This document shows, one piece after another, positions 30,892 to 35,106 of a stretch of 40,364 nt of DNA (position 1 is its first letter; each line of letters starts with the position of its first letter). The position numbers were made by a program, and so were the translations under genes. The notes below the pieces were generated by a model. It was given only the letters and a program-made list of their open reading frames with translations, was not told the origin of the DNA and ran no database searches. The stretch comes from a virus (lineage: Duplodnaviria; Heunggongvirae; Uroviricota; Caudoviricetes): positions 1-40,364 of the IMG/VR virus record IMGVR_UViG_2563366860_000007. One strand, written 5' to 3'.

Positions 30892-31529
30892 GCGTTAGTT
30901 TCTCCACAACCAGAAGCAATCGACGCCACGACGCCCGGAGCTGCACACTCGCGGGCGTTACTCTTTTCCGGCGCACAAAAAACACGAAATAACAGTGTTA
31001 AATGCTCCTGCCACTTCGCCATTACTTGGTAGCTGTTCTCTTCGATTTGCTCACGCTCAGCTTGGTCAATAACTCCATCAGCAGTTGCCTTGCGTAAGTA
31101 CTGGGAATGCTTGCCAATCCATTCTATTGACTCCATCAGCCGCTGATTAATGTCACCATTGTCAATGTCATCAATGACCACCAGCGGCACAAACACCCCA
31201 TTACTACGACGGGCTATTGCATCCGTTACATGCCTGGTACCACTGGCATCCTGTAAAACCATGGCCCACTCAAGTGGAAAAATTTGATCCCCACCGCTAC
31301 GCAGTCTGTTATGCAATTGATCTTTTGCTGGGGTGATATCATCAGATTTATACAAACCAAGAATTTCTGCTGCTTCCTCATAGCCATGAGGTAAATCAGC
31401 AATCGTTCTTCGTATTGCTGCCACCAGCCATGCTGGTTGCTTATCAACTTTCCATTCAGGTTCTTTACCCACGTTTAAGCCCTCATATCTGTGGTTTCTG
31501 TAAATCGATTTATCCATTAGATTTTTCAT
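30888..31529 (-). CDS. CII-like / YdaT-like regulatory protein (start uncertain)
   Basis: Second gene of the rightward early operon after the Cro-like gene; ATG candidates at 31529 and 31517, the track start at 31586 is GTG; family by position and weak recall. Confidence 0.45.
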
Positions 31530-31710
31530 AAAGCTCAGGTTTAAATGGCAACCGTCCGCAAGTTCTATATGCAGCCTCTGCTGCACGTCCTTTTGGAATT
31601 AACTGGCCAGGACGGTTTCGCCACTGATAAACGGCTTCAGTTGTTATGCCGAAAAAAGCAGCAACTTTCTCAATGCTGCCGAAGTAGCTTTCGATATCGT
31701 CAGTCGTCAT
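31510..31710 (-). CDS. cro: Cro-like repressor (YdaS-like HTH)
   Basis: 66 aa; FFGITTEAVYQWRNRPGQLIPKGRAAE resembles YdaS/Cro-type HTH proteins; divergent from the CI gene. Confidence 0.7.
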   Translation of the reverse strand: MTTDDIESYFGSIEKVAAFFGITTEAVYQWRNRPGQLIPKGRAAEAAYRTCGRLPFKPELYEKSNG

Positions 31711-31807
31711 ATGCCCTCCAAACTAAGTTTTATTAGATGTTAATTATCAATCTATCTTAGGTCAATAAAAACTAAGATTACTTAGTAATTAAAGAAATGG
31801 TGCTCCT
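31711..31807. promoter_or_regulatory. Divergent immunity-region promoters with operator sites (OR-like)
   Basis: 97-bp intergenic region between cro-like and cI starts with repeated half-sites ACTAAG / CTTAGT: perfect inverted repeat ACTAAGATTACTTAGT at 31771..31786, ACTAAG at 31722, CTTAG at 31756. Confidence 0.6.
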
Positions 31808-32434
31808 ATGGAAACGGTTGGTCAGCGTATAAAAGCTCTGAGAAGAGTTACCAGAACGTCCCAGAAAGAATTGGGTAAATTTTGTGGAGTAAGTGACGTT
31901 GCTGTGGGGTACTGGGAGAAAGACATCAATGTCCCTGGTGGGGAAGCACTTTCAAAATTAGCGAAGTTCTTCAATACGTCAATAGATTACATTCTTTATG
32001 GTGCGGAGTTTGAAGGCAAACTCGTCACAAACATGCGCAGAGTTCCTGTAATCTCGTGGGTTCAGGCTGGGCAGTTTACTGAGTGCAGGACAGCAGAAGT
32101 GTTTAGTGAAGTAGACAAGTGGGTAGATACATCATTAAAGATTGGTGATAACTCATTTGCATTGGAGGTTAAAGGCGACTCCATGACTAACCCTAACGGC
32201 CTCCCAACAATACCAGAAGGCGCAACAGTGATTGTAGATCCTGATGCAGAACCCCGGCATGGAAAAATAGTCATCGCTAGACTTGATGGAACAAACGAAG
32301 CCACAGTAAAAAAATTAGTTATCGATGGCCCTCAAAAGTTTTTAGTGCCATTAAATCCCCGGTACCCCAACATCCCGATCAATGGTAATTGCCTCATCAT
32401 TGGTGTAGTCAAAGGAGTTCAATACGAACTCTAG
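31808..32434 (+). CDS. cI: CI-type prophage repressor (HTH plus S24 LexA-like peptidase domain)
   Basis: N-terminal HTH (QRIKALRRVTRTSQKELGKFCGVSDVAVGYWE) and C-terminal autocleavage domain with GDSM Ser and downstream KK. Confidence 0.9.
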   Translation: METVGQRIKALRRVTRTSQKELGKFCGVSDVAVGYWEKDINVPGGEALSKLAKFFNTSIDYILYGAEFEGKLVTNMRRVPVISWVQAGQFTECRTAEVFSEVDKWVDTSLKIGDNSFALEVKGDSMTNPNGLPTIPEGATVIVDPDAEPRHGKIVIARLDGTNEATVKKLVIDGPQKFLVPLNPRYPNIPINGNCLIIGVVKGVQYEL

Positions 32435-32453
32435 CCCCCCCTTTTCTCTAACC

Positions 32454-32490
32454 AAAACACCGAACTAAGAAAAGTTTGGTGTTTTCTCTT
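32454..32490 (+). terminator. Hairpin plus T-rich tract downstream of cI, flanked by operator-like half-sites
   Basis: AAAACACC-N16-GGTGTTTT followed by CTCTT; ACTAAG half-sites at 32463 and 32500 (same motif as in OR). Confidence 0.35.
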
Positions 32491-32790
32491 GCCATTAAAA
32501 CTAAGTTAAGTTAGATTTTATATCAAAGATAACGAACAGGCAGGACGCCCACGAAGTAGCCGCCTGGGGCATATGAAGTCCAGGATGATTCGTTAGTACC
32601 AAAAAAGCGCCCTACCGGACGCTTCGCTCTTTAAAAATCAGTAACCCTCACTTTGGGCCTGGATCTGGTGGCCTGGGACGAGGTGGAATATGAAAAGGCT
32701 CTATTGGTCGACTCATTATCCAATCCTATTATGTCTCATTTCTTCGGTTTCGGTGGTTTCGGCTTCGGAGGTACATGTCCGTGAACTGGA

Positions 32791-33285
32791 TTATGCTTGT
32801 TGGTCATCATTAATATCCGTTAGTTCATTCTCTAGAGGTAGATCTCCCGCACACCAAGCTATAAATTTTTCTTTGGTTGTTAAATCGTACTTAGTTGGAA
32901 CACCAGCAAAAATACAGGCCCGAATGAAAGCCGCTCGTTCAAGTGATTTCCATGGATTACTATCAGTATCTTGGATTTTTAAATACCTAGCTTGCAACTG
33001 ATCTTCAGGAAGGGTATCAGACTCAATCAGCAGTCTTTTGTAATGCCTCGCTTGCTCTTTAGACATTCCAGCCTCTTGGCCAAACTGATAGACCAACTGA
33101 AGAACCGAAAGTACGGCAACAAACAAACCGAAAATAAATAAATTACTGTACGGGGCGAAAACTGAAAAACCGAGAACGATTAACATCAACGTTATTAATT
33201 TATCAATGCGAGTTAACAACGTGTAATTCATCTTCTCCAATACATAAGAGTAGTGAACATAAAATTTATAATCGTCTCTGGTCAT
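32791..33285 (-). CDS. SieB-like membrane protein (candidate superinfection exclusion / abortive infection), AT-rich moron
   Basis: 164 aa; two adjacent TM helices (LITLMLIVLGFSVFAPY, LFIFGLFVAVLSVLQLVY) then a charged soluble C-terminus; antisense to the flanking early-left genes, as recalled for sieB in the Rac prophage; visibly AT-rich. Confidence 0.5.
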   Translation of the reverse strand: MTRDDYKFYVHYSYVLEKMNYTLLTRIDKLITLMLIVLGFSVFAPYSNLFIFGLFVAVLSVLQLVYQFGQEAGMSKEQARHYKRLLIESDTLPEDQLQARYLKIQDTDSNPWKSLERAAFIRACIFAGVPTKYDLTTKEKFIAWCAGDLPLENELTDINDDQQA

Positions 33286-33670
33286 ATTAGTCTCAGTTTT
33301 CCTTGGGTGGTTTTGGAGGAACTGGAGGCTTTTGTCTTAACGGCACATGCCTCTCCTCATACTTATCTACACATAGATCCATATAAATCCTTATCGTTGT
33401 TGGGGAGGGTTACATAATAACCAAATCCTTGTTGTTGGGGAATAACCAGGTCCACCTCGCCTGATGTGGCTAAAAGCAGGCACATAACAGCTAAGTATTT
33501 TCAACCAGAGAGAATCCTTAGCGTTGTGGTGAATGCGCAGGCTGATGCGCGAAAGACATTGCAGCTATTGCGGAAAAGAGCTGTTCGGCGGGGCAATTAA
33601 ACGCCCGTGAGAGTCTGAAATAACCGCAAGCCGGAGATCAGCACCGGTCACCACAACAGCCACTGCTTTG

Positions 33671-33718
33671 GCGGTACCAGTTTGTACACTTGCTTCCGGC
33701 TGGTACCGCTCTTTTTAC
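33671..33718 (+). terminator. Strong rho-independent terminator upstream of the early-left gene cluster
   Basis: GCGGTACCAG-N19-CTGGTACCGC (10-bp perfect stem) followed by TCTTTTTAC on the plus strand. Confidence 0.5.
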
Positions 33719-33853
33719 AAAACAGAGAAGAGCATCACCGGACGACGGGCTCATAACCCAATCCATCCGGGCGGCTGCCACCGCAGGTGTTCTTCTCTGT
33801 TTTGTGGAGAAACCAACCGACCTTGCAGGGTCGATATGATGAGGAGCAGCAAA

Positions 33854-34216
33854 ATGGCTAGCGAACGCAGTACTGATGTGCAGGCATTTATCGGGGAGCT
33901 GGACGGCGGCGTATTTGAAACCAAAATCGGCGCAGTTCTCAGTGAAGTCGCTTCCGGTGTGATGAACACGAAAACCAAAGGTAAGGTCTCGCTCAACCTG
34001 GAAATCGAACCGTTTGATGAGAACCGTGTGAAAATCAAACACAAACTCTCATATGTTCGCCCGACTAACCGCGGGAAAATTTCTGAAGAAGACACCACCG
34101 AAACGCCGATGTATGTCAATCGCGGTGGTCGCCTGACTATTCTGCAGGAAGACCAGGGACAATTACTGACTCTTGCCGGTGAACCTGACGGAAAACTCCG
34201 CGCAGCAGGTCATTAA
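33854..34216 (+). CDS. YfdP-like hypothetical protein (120 aa)
   Basis: ATG at 33854 preceded by GAGGAG; size and following gene order match recalled CPS-53 yfdP-yfdQ-yfdR-yfdS; the track ORF start at 33668 runs through the terminator and is rejected. Confidence 0.5.
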   Translation: MASERSTDVQAFIGELDGGVFETKIGAVLSEVASGVMNTKTKGKVSLNLEIEPFDENRVKIKHKLSYVRPTNRGKISEEDTTETPMYVNRGGRLTILQEDQGQLLTLAGEPDGKLRAAGH

Positions 34217-34281
34217 TATCGTTCTTAATTAACTGATTATTTATCTCATCACTGAATATCTTAATATAGTGAGGACTTATT

Positions 34282-35106
34282 ATGTCTCAGAACTTAGACG
34301 CAACCGCAATTAATCAAATCCATGCCCTTATTTCTGCTCAGGGTGTTAATGAAATTATCAGTAAGATTGGTGCCGATGCTGTGGCATTGCCTGAGAATTT
34401 CCGCATTCATGATCTGGAAAAATTTAATTTAAATCGCTTCCGTTTCCGTGGTGCGCTTTCCACTGCCAGCATCGATGACTTTACCCGTTATTCTAAAGAT
34501 CTTGCAGATGAAGGCACCCGCTGCTTTATCGATGCTGATAATATGCGTGCCGTCAGTGTGCTTAACCTGGGTACTATTGATGAACCAGGTCACGCAGATA
34601 ACACCGCCACTCTCAAACTGAAAAAGACAGCACCGTTCTCTGCCCTGTTGTCTGTTAACGGCGAGCGTAACTCCCAGAAATCACTGGCAGAATGGATTGA
34701 AGACTGGGCCGACTACCTTGTGGGCTTTGATGCTAATGGTGACGCCATTCAGGCAACAAAAGCGGCTGCGGCAATCCGTAAAATCACGATTGAAGCAAAC
34801 CAGACCGCTGATTTTGAAGATAATGACTTCAGCGGCAAACGCTCCCTGATGGAATCTGTCGAAGCGAAGACCAAAGACATTATGCCAGTGGCATTTGAAT
34901 TTAAATGCGTTCCGTTTGAAGGTCTGAAAGAACGTCCGTTTAAATTACGCCTCAGCATTATCACTGGCGATCGTCCTGTACTGGTTCTGCGCATTATTCA
35001 GCTGGAAGCGGTGCAGGAAGATATGGCTAACGAATTTCGTGATCTGCTTGTTGAGAAATTCAAAGACAGCAAAGTAGAAACCTTTATTGGTACTTTCACC
35101 GCCTGA
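34282..35106 (+). CDS. YfdQ-like protein (DUF2303 family)
   Basis: 274 aa, same length and position as recalled CPS-53 YfdQ. Confidence 0.6.

Follow-up and report, generated by a model that had tools for sequence, protein, structure and literature searches.

Putative Operators Flanking the Repressor Gene cI in the Immunity Region of an mEp460-Type Lambdoid Prophage

Organization of the cI Locus

The window, i.e., the whole stretch of DNA analyzed, is 40,364 bp in length and contains a cI gene that is divergent from cro across a 97-bp gap with a GC content of 28%. The features of this locus are listed below by their positions in the window, with strands given for genes, promoters and transcribed elements.

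31510..31710, minus strand: cro, 66 amino acid residues, first gene of the PR operon
31722..31737: OR1-equivalent putative operator ACTAAGTTTTATTAGA, reaching from the final base of the PR -10 up to about +9, positioned as P22 OR1
31737..31765, minus strand: PR promoter, -35 TTGACC (31765-31760), 17-bp spacer, -10 TAACAT (31742-31737)
31746..31761: OR2-equivalent weak putative operator ATCAATCTATCTTAGG, last 2 nt of the PR -35 and spacer, assigned by position and not by score
31771..31786: OR3-equivalent putative operator ACTAAGATTACTTAGT, a perfect palindrome, in the same register after the PR -35 as P22 OR3
31773..31778, plus strand: candidate -10 of PRM, TAAGAT, inside OR3, placed by homology with P22 only
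31808..32434, plus strand: cI repressor gene, 208 amino acid residues
32454..32485, plus strand: intrinsic terminator of cI, a hairpin with a 13-bp stem and the loop AAGAAA, followed by a U-rich tail
32464..32479: OL2 candidate ACTAAGAAAAGTTTGG, good left half and poor right half, within the terminator stem-loop DNA
32489..32517, plus strand: PL promoter, -35 TTGCCA, 17-bp spacer, -10 TAGATT
32500..32515: putative operator OL1 ACTAAGTTAAGTTAGA, situated in the spacer of PL with overlap of the -10, positioned as P22 OL1
32531..32598, plus strand: conserved PL leader, right-hand end of the exchangeable immunity module

The cro product matched the Pfam family P22_Cro (E = 4.4e-11; 42.8 bits with a cutoff of 30.2) and a PHROG transcriptional regulator, and its gene has a GGAGG Shine-Dalgarno sequence 5 nt upstream of the ATG. 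The polypeptide encoded by cI contained an HTH_3 domain (E = 3.5e-9) and a Peptidase_S24 domain (E = 1.6e-27). It was 100% identical to the repressor of mEp460_4F5 and 47–49% identical to C2 of P22 and cI of phage 21. Its N-terminal domain matched the P22 C2-DNA structures 2R1J and 3JXB, and its C-terminal domain matched structures of the C-terminal domain of lambda cI (E about 1e-27). Moreover, the cleavage site Ala87-Gly88 as well as Ser125 and Lys168/169 were conserved and aligned with those of lambda cI and P22 C2. The recognition helix was SDVAVGYWEK, compared to SNVAISQWER of P22 C2; Val33 is kept, and Asn32, Ser36 and Gln37 are replaced by Asp, Gly and Tyr, respectively. As predicted from its sequence, cI is a P22 C2-type repressor with HTH and S24 self-cleavage domains.

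A scan of positions 31500-34000 for sigma-70-like promoters returned two matches only, PR and PL, each of which overlapped a site of the motif described below. The -35 of PR aligned with that of P22 PR (TTGACT). The register of PL was identical to that of the annotated P22 PL (TTGACC-17-TAAATT), and its TTG and TAGATT were conserved in 103 related loci. The same scan for consensus promoters gave no match to PRM, the maintenance promoter of cI, because its -35 is poor. In the P22 record, the -10 of the lysogenic c2 promoter is TAAGAT and is located in the left half of OR3; the same hexamer was found at the same place here, where PRM would lie.

The terminator downstream of cI had a predicted folding energy of -15.6 kcal/mol (z = -5.3), which none of 200 shuffles equaled, and its pairing was kept by natural variants, such as a change from G.U to A-U. 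The PL leader further downstream is common to the heteroimmune phage SfV, in which it begins directly after SfV's own PL. It resembles the PL leaders of P22 and phage 21 (CAGCAGGACGC) and, presumably, starts with a sequence related to the PL leader of lambda. As a whole, the leader folded no better than shuffles (z = +0.3); one small hairpin in it covaries. An Rfam search of positions 31000-35000 with E-values up to 1 gave no match. Finally, no family match to an N-like antiterminator was obtained for the open reading frames following the leader in mEp460_4F5, SfV and 569R4, and none was found in the window.

Occurrence, Conservation and Co-variation of the Motif

The first-pass annotation described a perfect inverted repeat between cro and cI, and such a repeat of 16 bp is indeed present at 31771-31786. 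It also placed the half-site twice downstream of the cI stop codon, where ACTAAG was found at 32464 and 32500; the previously given position 32463 is the first A of AACTAAG. Only the copy at 32500 belongs to a full site, that of OL1. The copy at 32464 is a half-site, and its partner GTTTGG matches at 3 of 6 positions.

The hexamer ACTAAG was found six times in the window, all within 31722-32895, with starts at 31722, 32464 and 32500 among them, and CTTAG was found at 31756. Five of the six copies were in the two non-coding flanks of cI, for which composition-matched shuffles gave 0.13 copies and none of 50,000 shuffles reached five. CTAA-N6-TTAG had three matches in the window (31723, 31772, and 32501) versus 0.13 expected, and none of 100 shuffles contained as many. 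Nine of the 13 CTAAG/CTTAG pentamers of the window fell within 31.7–33.5 kb. In the window, the motif is clustered at the flanks of cI beyond chance expectation. The sixth ACTAAG, at 32890 inside a minus-strand open reading frame, and a match with two mismatches at 755 (ACAAAGTACCCTTCGT) both lacked a partner half-site, scored low with the weight matrix described next, and were regarded as chance matches.

The weight matrix was built from sites in diverged orthologues only and is thus semi-independent of the window, in which about 40,000 positions were scored. The three top-scoring positions were 32500 (OL1, 21.3 bits), 31722 (OR1, 19.0 bits), and 31771 (OR3, 18.9 bits). In 200 shuffles, the highest score was 17.9 bits and the mean best score was 12.9 bits, so that OL1, OR1 and OR3 exceeded all 200. 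The commonest natural variant of OR3 ends in C (ACTAAGATTACTTAGC). Because the outer A/T varies among natural variants, the putative operator consensus is better written as CTAA(G)-N4-(N)TTAG than as ACTAAG-N4-CTTAGT.

Conservation was assessed in 103 related loci, which comprised 19 OR and 31 OL variants and whose cI polypeptides were 67–100% identical. All 24 core columns were invariant in these loci, compared to 68 of 173 (39%) other non-coding columns (Fisher P = 2e-9, which is optimistic given that related sequences and neighboring columns were treated as independent). The invariant columns included the OR1 cores CTAAG and TTAGA as well as CTAAGTTAA and TTAGATT of OL1.

All 19 loci with this cI had the motif in both OR and OL, which bears out the earlier proposal that the motif defines the immunity specificity of this phage. 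About 90 further loci share the PL leader but have another upstream gene; of these, only diverged orthologues with the same recognition helix had the motif in both places. At the same positions, TGTACC..GGTACA was found in SfV and SfIV and GTAGGA..TCCTAC in mEp390 and SKA5, and many further operator types were found upstream of the same PL leader. The cI of locus L154 was only 41% identical to that of the window, and it has the helix SDVTVGYWER and CTAA-N6-TTAG operators. P22 C2, which was 47–49% identical, has the helix SNVAISQWER and operators of the type TTAAG-N4-CTTAA. The operator type follows the recognition helix and not the overall similarity of the repressors.

The Proposed Switch and Its Alternatives

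The locus is very probably an immC-type immunity region belonging to a lambdoid E. coli prophage with mEp460-type immunity; its build is P22-like, and it has its own operator specificity. OR appears to consist of three related inverted repeats, of which OR1 and OR3 are predicted to be strong and OR2 weak; OR1 and OR2 overlap PR. In the proposed switch, dimers of cI would bind operators of 16–18 bp with the core CTAA(G)-N4-(N)TTAG. OR1 would cover -10/+1 of PR, the intrinsically weak OR2 would presumably be filled cooperatively, and OR3 would overlap PRM. On the other side of cI, OL1 would occupy the spacer and -10 of PL, with a degenerate OL2 36 bp upstream in terminator DNA. Repressor at OR1/OR2 and OL1 is expected to shut off the early rightward (cro-cII-O...) operon as well as the early leftward (yfdP/Q/R-like) operon, and RecA-stimulated cleavage at Ala87-Gly88 would relieve this repression. 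Cro, a member of the P22_Cro family, is likewise expected to act at these sites. A loop between OL and OR is conceivable; the centers of OL1 and OR3 are 729 bp apart, and the C-terminal domain of cI is homologous to that of lambda cI. To our knowledge, octamer looping has been shown for lambda only.

It is possible, if unlikely, that only OR1, OR3 and OL1 are operators, that OR2 is PR promoter DNA, and that the half-site at 32464 belongs to the cI terminator, in which case two sites would make up OR and one site OL. The matrix scores of OR2 (7.1 bits, eighth in the window and not significant by sequence) and OL2 (11.4 bits, fourth in the window and not significant alone) did not exceed the mean best score obtained with shuffles. 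The two natural haplotypes of OR2, ATCAAT..CTTAGG and ACAAAT..CTTTGG, differ at 3 of 12 half-site positions. The hexamer at 32464 lies partly in the stem and partly in the loop of a strong hairpin, 6 of the 103 loci have ACCAAG in its place, and the hairpin alone could account for part of the conservation of the OL2 half-site. However, both OR2 and OL2 are located exactly where P22 has its OR2 and OL2. The spacing of OR2 is 24 bp to OR1 and 25 bp to OR3, compared to 23 and 25 bp in P22, and OL2 is 36 bp from OL1, a distance of 34 bp in L185 and of 35 bp in each of P22, SKA5 and L154. Moreover, orthologues possess good sites at these places: OR2 is CCTAATCAAACTTAGA in L185 and TCTAATTTTTTTTAGG in L154, and L154 also has a full OL2, ACTAAATTAATTTAGA, 35 bp from its OL1. 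ACTAAG is also kept in the terminator of L185, even though the sequence of the terminator stem differs. Finally, weak middle sites that are filled cooperatively are normal in lambdoid switches (PMC5977221).

OR2 was also inspected as a site for IHF (WATCAANNNNTTR), which was dropped because the TTR part does not fit. No third OL site was recognizable in the window upstream of 32464. Another haplotype has an extra AACTAAG where the window has AACCAAA, and this copy is without a partner half.

It is possible, but rather doubtful, that the autoregulation of cI is wired differently from that of lambda and P22, with OR3 similar to OR1, OR2 very weak, and no recognizable OL3. OR3 has the consensus half-site on both arms, and its matrix score was as high as that of OR1. 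If OR3 and OR1 bound repressor equally tightly, a low concentration of cI would suffice to silence its own promoter, and looping between OL3 and OR3 would not be needed. Low repressor levels and high spontaneous induction would then be expected for a prophage type found in about 9% of complete E. coli genomes. Self-shutoff by cI at low concentration without looping is the arrangement proposed for the "hair-trigger" Stx phages.

That the motif is no repressor site but a repeat in AT-rich promoter DNA that arose by chance or through base composition, or a site for another protein such as a host factor or Cro alone, is very improbable. AT-rich inverted repeats are common in promoters and the cro-cI gap is very AT-rich, but five copies in the flanks of cI far exceed the 0.13 of composition-matched shuffles, and the cores are invariant while the flanking AT-rich columns vary. 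Moreover, other palindromes replace the motif whenever the recognition helix differs and the flanks are otherwise identical, and the motif has the same geometry as the homologous operator of P22 C2, i.e., two half-sites of 5–6 bp and a 4-bp center (PMC5175364).

Equally implausible is a third operator cluster near 33491/33517 looping with OR and OL. The first-pass annotation listed the half-site there, but the sequences are GCTAAG (33490-33495) and CTTAGC (33517-33522); because they read so and are 21 bp rather than 4 bp apart, they fit neither the hexamer nor the N4 geometry. The pair is inverted in orientation and belongs to the nine CTAAG/CTTAG pentamers within 31.7–33.5 kb. Neither copy, however, has a partner half-site or is among the 15 best matrix matches. 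In a long predicted hairpin (z = -2.6), the two sequences pair with each other as the stem, and this pairing is kept as G.U in a variant with CTTGGC instead of CTTAGC. An 86-bp module with both pentamers (33452-33537) is nearly identical in SfV and SfIV, whose repressors and operators differ. Because the pair is a hairpin stem and its module also occurs in these heteroimmune phages, it is not regarded as an operator.

Of 5426 complete E. coli genomes, 513 contained the whole immunity region and about 1500 the PL leader. Database records of mEp460-type regions name "LexA family" and "Cro/CI" proteins only and have no operators or promoters annotated. A full-text literature search with the palindrome in either orientation found no paper, and the papers mentioning mEp460 did not treat its operators. 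The region is an ordinary and common lambdoid immunity region whose operator specificity was found undescribed; the motif is a real but ordinary feature and does not reveal a new mechanism. The results provide an operator code, CTAA(G)-N4-(N)TTAG, as well as promoters and module boundaries for one of the commoner immunity types of E. coli prophages. Such annotation helps to predict which prophages confer superinfection immunity to one another and to engineer orthogonal pairs of repressor and operator. The P22 C2 family also gains a natural specificity variant, in which the change from TTAAG to CTAAG is found together with Asn32Asp, Ser36Gly and Gln37Tyr and a retained Val.

Comparison with Known Immunity Regions

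The closest relatives are found in Escherichia virus mEp460_4F5 (LR595868.1) and in about 500 prophages of E. coli, with identical cI and with OR and OL that are 99–100% identical. The window and mEp460_4F5 differ in the DNA from PL to the yfdP-like gene; the window has a minus-strand gene of 164 amino acid residues that mEp460_4F5 lacks.

Similar to the switches of the Stx phages 933W and BAA2326 studied by the Koudelka laboratory, only two OL sites are recognizable here, and the PRM-proximal OR3 does not look weaker by sequence than OR1 and OR2. This likeness is one of layout only, as the repressor and operator sequences are unrelated. In 933W, which has no OL3, the long-range loop has no role in control of PRM, showing that looping is not universal (PMC5977221).

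In lambda, too, a tripartite OR separates the divergent genes cI and cro, OL/PL is located downstream of the cI operon, and the repressor has an S24 self-cleaving C-terminal domain. Different from lambda, however, the N-terminal domain of cI here is P22-like and the operator sequences are unrelated to those of lambda. OL and OR are about 730 bp apart, compared to about 2.4 kb in lambda, because rexA and rexB are missing here. Moreover, the sites are shifted relative to PR, with OR1 over +1 here and over the spacer in lambda.

In its build, the region resembles immC of P22 (c2, cro, OR1-3, and OL1-3), to which the region of phage 21 is nearly identical; the order of cro, OR, repressor gene, terminator, OL/PL and leader is the same. 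Cro belongs to the same Pfam family, and the 47–49% identity of the repressors extends over their full length. The operator consensus of P22 C2 is ATTTAAG-N4-CTTAAAT, with two half-sites and a 4-bp center (PMC5175364), and the operators here likewise have two half-sites of 5–6 bp around a 4-bp AT-rich center. The positions of the sites agree to within 1 bp with the annotated OR1-3 and OL1 of P22, and their placing is the same, with OR1 on -10/+1 of PR, OR2 on -35/spacer and OL1 in the PL spacer/-10. The earlier proposal of OL-like sites next to cI holds, given that the PL promoter just after cI carries the motif in the register of P22 OL1; OL adjoining cI is the normal P22-type layout and no special feature.

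Different from P22, however, the half-site is (A)CTAAG instead of (T)TTAAG, OR3 and the ATG of cI are 21 nt apart where the two abut in P22, a third OL is not recognizable and OL2 is embedded in the terminator, and no N-like gene (gene 24 of P22) was found after PL. Homoimmunity with P22 or phage 21 was considered and rejected, as the half-site CTAAG and the helix SDVAVGYWEK do not match theirs. Given the differences in half-site, helix and layout, the phage is expected to be heteroimmune to P22.

Proposed operators and promoters at the immunity region

The 208-aa protein encoded at 31808–32434 (+) possesses HTH_3 and Peptidase_S24 domains and showed 47–49% full-length identity to P22 C2 and the phage 21 repressor; the repressor of Escherichia virus mEp460_4F5 was 100% identical to it. 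Structure matches were to P22 C2 for the N-terminal domain and to lambda cI for the C-terminal domain, and the Ala-Gly cleavage site and the Ser/Lys dyad were kept. The 66-aa protein encoded divergently at 31510–31710 (−) is a member of the P22_Cro family. Downstream of its gene on the minus strand are those for a CII-like activator and then an O-like replication protein, while yfdP/Q/R-like early-left genes lie further on along the plus strand. Because the protein families and the neighbouring genes fit, the labels cI and cro of the first-pass annotation are correct. Directly after the cI stop codon, a C-run (32435–32441) was C7 in the window and C6, C8 or interrupted in near-identical loci, a difference attributable to homopolymer length variation or to noise in sequencing.

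The cro-cI gap is 97 bp. A consensus scan of 31500–34000 found just two sigma-70-like promoters, PR on the cro side and the early-left promoter PL 3′ of cI.

Proposed operators and promoters, with P22 equivalents as operator names
31722–31737: OR1, ACTAAGTTTTATTAGA, two mismatches versus the perfect repeat, in the cro-cI gap, beginning on the last PR −10 base
31746–31761: OR2, ATCAATCTATCTTAGG, between the OR1 and OR3 sites, on the last bases of the PR −35 and the spacer
31771–31786: OR3, perfect inverted repeat ACTAAGATTACTTAGT, in the cro-cI gap, beginning 5 nt past the PR −35 and containing TAAGAT
31765–31737, minus strand: PR, TTGACC-17-TAACAT
32489–32517, plus strand: PL, TTGCCA-17-TAGATT
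32500–32515: OL1, ACTAAGTTAAGTTAGA, 3′ of the cI stop codon, including ACTAAG at 32500, beginning 5 nt past the PL −35 and extending into the −10

ACTAAG was found at both 32464 and 32500, 3′ of the cI stop codon. As the motif was located in the gap and at these positions, the coordinates first proposed for the cro-cI repeat and the two half-sites after cI are right.

The 40,364-bp window had six copies of the ACTAAG hexamer, where shuffles predict ~10, and every copy was within 31722–32895. Five were in the two non-coding cI flanks, versus 0.13 expected from shuffles of the same AT-rich stretches, a number matched by 0 of 50,000 shuffles of these flanks. The core CTAA-N6-TTAG had three matches, every one at a proposed site, versus 0.13 expected. 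In addition, a weight matrix was built from the sites of two diverged orthologous loci alone, with the window sites left out of training. Its top three among all window positions were 32500 (21.3 bits), 31722 (19.0 bits) and 31771 (18.9 bits), above the best score in 200 shuffled windows (17.9 bits). The half-site at 32464 ranked fourth (11.4 bits) and OR2 at 31746 eighth (7.1 bits), neither being significant alone. By shuffles and matrix, the motif that the first-pass annotation placed on both sides of cI clusters at the cI flanks and is not frequent at random positions. Beyond the immunity region, ACTAAG/CTTAGT was found once in ~39 kb (32890), where dinucleotide shuffles predict ~10; this scarcity is partly due to the TAA and TAG inside the hexamer.

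Conservation and co-variation with the repressor

Conservation was assessed in 103 loci with the same recognition helix, whose cI were 67–100% identical and which comprised 19 OR and 31 OL variants. The CTAA/TTAG cores of OR1, OR3 and OL1 were invariant at every one of their 24 columns, compared with 68 of 173 other non-coding columns (Fisher P 2e-9, an optimistic value, since neither the sequences nor adjacent columns are independent).

Association with the repressor was assessed in 120 viral contigs retrieved by their shared PL leader. ACTAAG was present in both OR and OL of all contigs with this cI (19/19). Among ~90 contigs with another upstream gene, only L097 and L185 had the motif in both places, and their repressors (~90 and ~67% identical, respectively) are diverged orthologues with the same recognition helix. 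In the related phages SfV and SfIV, whose repressor is different, TGTACC..GGTACA palindromes were present in OR and in the PL spacer, and mEp390 and SKA5 have GTAGGA..TCCTAC at the equivalent places. The repressor of another contig, L154, was 41% identical to this cI, lower than the identity of P22 C2; it possesses the helix SDVTVGYWER, and CTAA-N6-TTAG operators were found at its OR1, OR2, OL1 and OL2. Operator specificity follows the recognition helix, P22 C2 with its different helix using TTAAG. The proposal that the motif defines the immunity specificity is borne out in that it travels with this cI and helix, other palindromes being found with other repressors. Moreover, contigs L089–L208 had at least a dozen different palindromes in the PL spacer ahead of this shared leader, and with each went a different repressor helix. 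They form a natural, ready-to-use collection of orthogonal repressor-operator pairs.

Two OR2 haplotypes occurred naturally, ATCAAT..CTTAGG and ACAAAT..CTTTGG, both with 8 of 12 consensus positions; in L185 and L154 this position was a good site. The 32464 half-site straddles the stem/loop boundary of the cI terminator hairpin (32454–32485; −15.6 kcal/mol, z = −5.3), which is followed by a U-rich tail. Its distance upstream of OL1 is 36 bp; the counterpart spacing was 35 bp in P22, SKA5 and L154 and 34 bp in L185. L154 had a full palindrome at the OL2 position, and the L185 terminator, whose stem differs, retained ACTAAG within it. Against an OL2 role, the right half was poor and 6 of the 103 loci had ACCAAG. 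On these comparisons, 32464 is probably a weak, degenerate OL2. No third OL site was recognisable in the window.

The early-left region

The ~70-bp PL leader (32531–32598) was conserved whatever the immunity type, with matches in ~1500 of 5426 complete E. coli genomes versus 513 for the cI region; SfV and SfIV DNA was the same as the window here, starting a few bases past the PL −10. The start of the leader is similar to those of the P22 and phage 21 PL leaders. The stem of its small hairpin at 32563–32584 covaried among loci (CCTGG/CCAGG, CCGGT/ACCGG and CCCGGT/ACCGGG). A second hairpin (32607–32622), which on the minus strand, with its T6 run, resembles a terminator of the minus-strand gene described below, precedes CGCTCTTTAA at 32625–32634, identical to boxA of P22 nutL. 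The other haplotype at this position was GCTCTTTAACAA, which is the rrn-type boxA. No N-like gene was found in the window between PL and the yfdP-like gene.

The minus-strand gene at 32791–33285, directed against PL, encodes a hydrophobic protein of 164 aa (phrog_6315; no Pfam match), at a position like that of sieB in P22. mEp460_4F5 lacks this gene and related phages carry different small genes in its place, so it resembles an exchangeable ("moron") accessory gene that might act in exclusion.

The first-pass annotation also counted a pair near 33491/33517 in the operator system. Only the pentamers CTAAG and CTTAG were found there, within GCTAAG and CTTAGC and 21 bp apart, and they were not among the 15 best operator-matrix hits. 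They lie in an 86-bp non-coding module (33452–33537) that was near-identical, including both pentamers, in the heteroimmune SfV and SfIV, and the GCTAAG/CTTAGC pair is part of the stem of a long imperfect predicted hairpin (z = −2.6). The pair was therefore rejected as operators. The module was conserved in nearly all related loci, one hairpin variant keeping its pairing as G.U, and might serve the early-left region as an RNA element or a regulatory site.

The gene-free stretch 33640–33850, upstream of the yfdP-like gene, is highly self-complementary and had no Rfam match. It contains a terminator-like hairpin at 33673–33716 (GGTACCAG...CTGGTACC, then GCTCTTTTT) and a long inverted repeat at 33718–33804 (CAAAACAGAGAAGA / TCTTCTCTGTTTTG). 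A 193-nt sRNA published for E. coli K1 RS218, sRNA-17, has been mapped to an intergenic region of >1 kb in an mEp460-like prophage (PMC7719688) and might be located within this stretch.

The proposed switch compared with known systems

The best-supported reading of the immunity region is a standard lambdoid switch. Repressor dimers bound to OR1 and OR2 would occlude PR, and repressor on OL1, with or without OL2, would occlude PL. OR3 would overlap the cI promoter, Cro would share the repressor's sites, and SOS-induced self-cleavage of the repressor would lift repression. We infer binding, affinity order, cooperativity and the start of the cI maintenance promoter PRM; OR3 and OR1 scored the same by the orthologue-derived matrix, and symmetry alone gives no affinity ranking. 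OL-OR looping may occur: the OL1-OR3 centre distance was 729 bp, much like that of P22, and the repressor's C-terminal domain resembles that of lambda cI. Looping is important in lambda, 434 and P22, but not in 933W, which is without OL3 (PMC5977221).

The site layout agreed with the annotated P22 record within 1 bp. The centre-to-centre spacings of the OR sites were 24 and 25 bp, compared with 23 and 25 bp in P22, and TAAGAT, the −10 of the lysogenic c2 promoter in the P22 record, is the same hexamer found within OR3 here. The OL first noticed beside cI holds up, with OL1 in PL in the register of P22 OL1; OL right after cI is the normal P22-type arrangement and not unusual. The P22 C2 operator consensus ATTTAAGATATCTTAAAT has TTAAG half-sites and a non-contacted 4-bp centre, and contacts by Val33 and Gln37 have been discussed (PMC5175364). 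The 4-bp centre is common to both systems, whereas the half-site here is CTAAG. Compared with P22 C2, the recognition helix keeps the valine and differs by Asn32→Asp, Ser36→Gly and Gln37→Tyr.

The phage type is already in databases as mEp460_4F5 and several "vB_Eco" phages, and the immunity region was present in 513 of 5426 complete E. coli genomes. The database records of these phages annotate no operators, and a literature search returned no paper with the palindrome. The immunity region is therefore a new member, with a new specificity, within a very well known kind of system.
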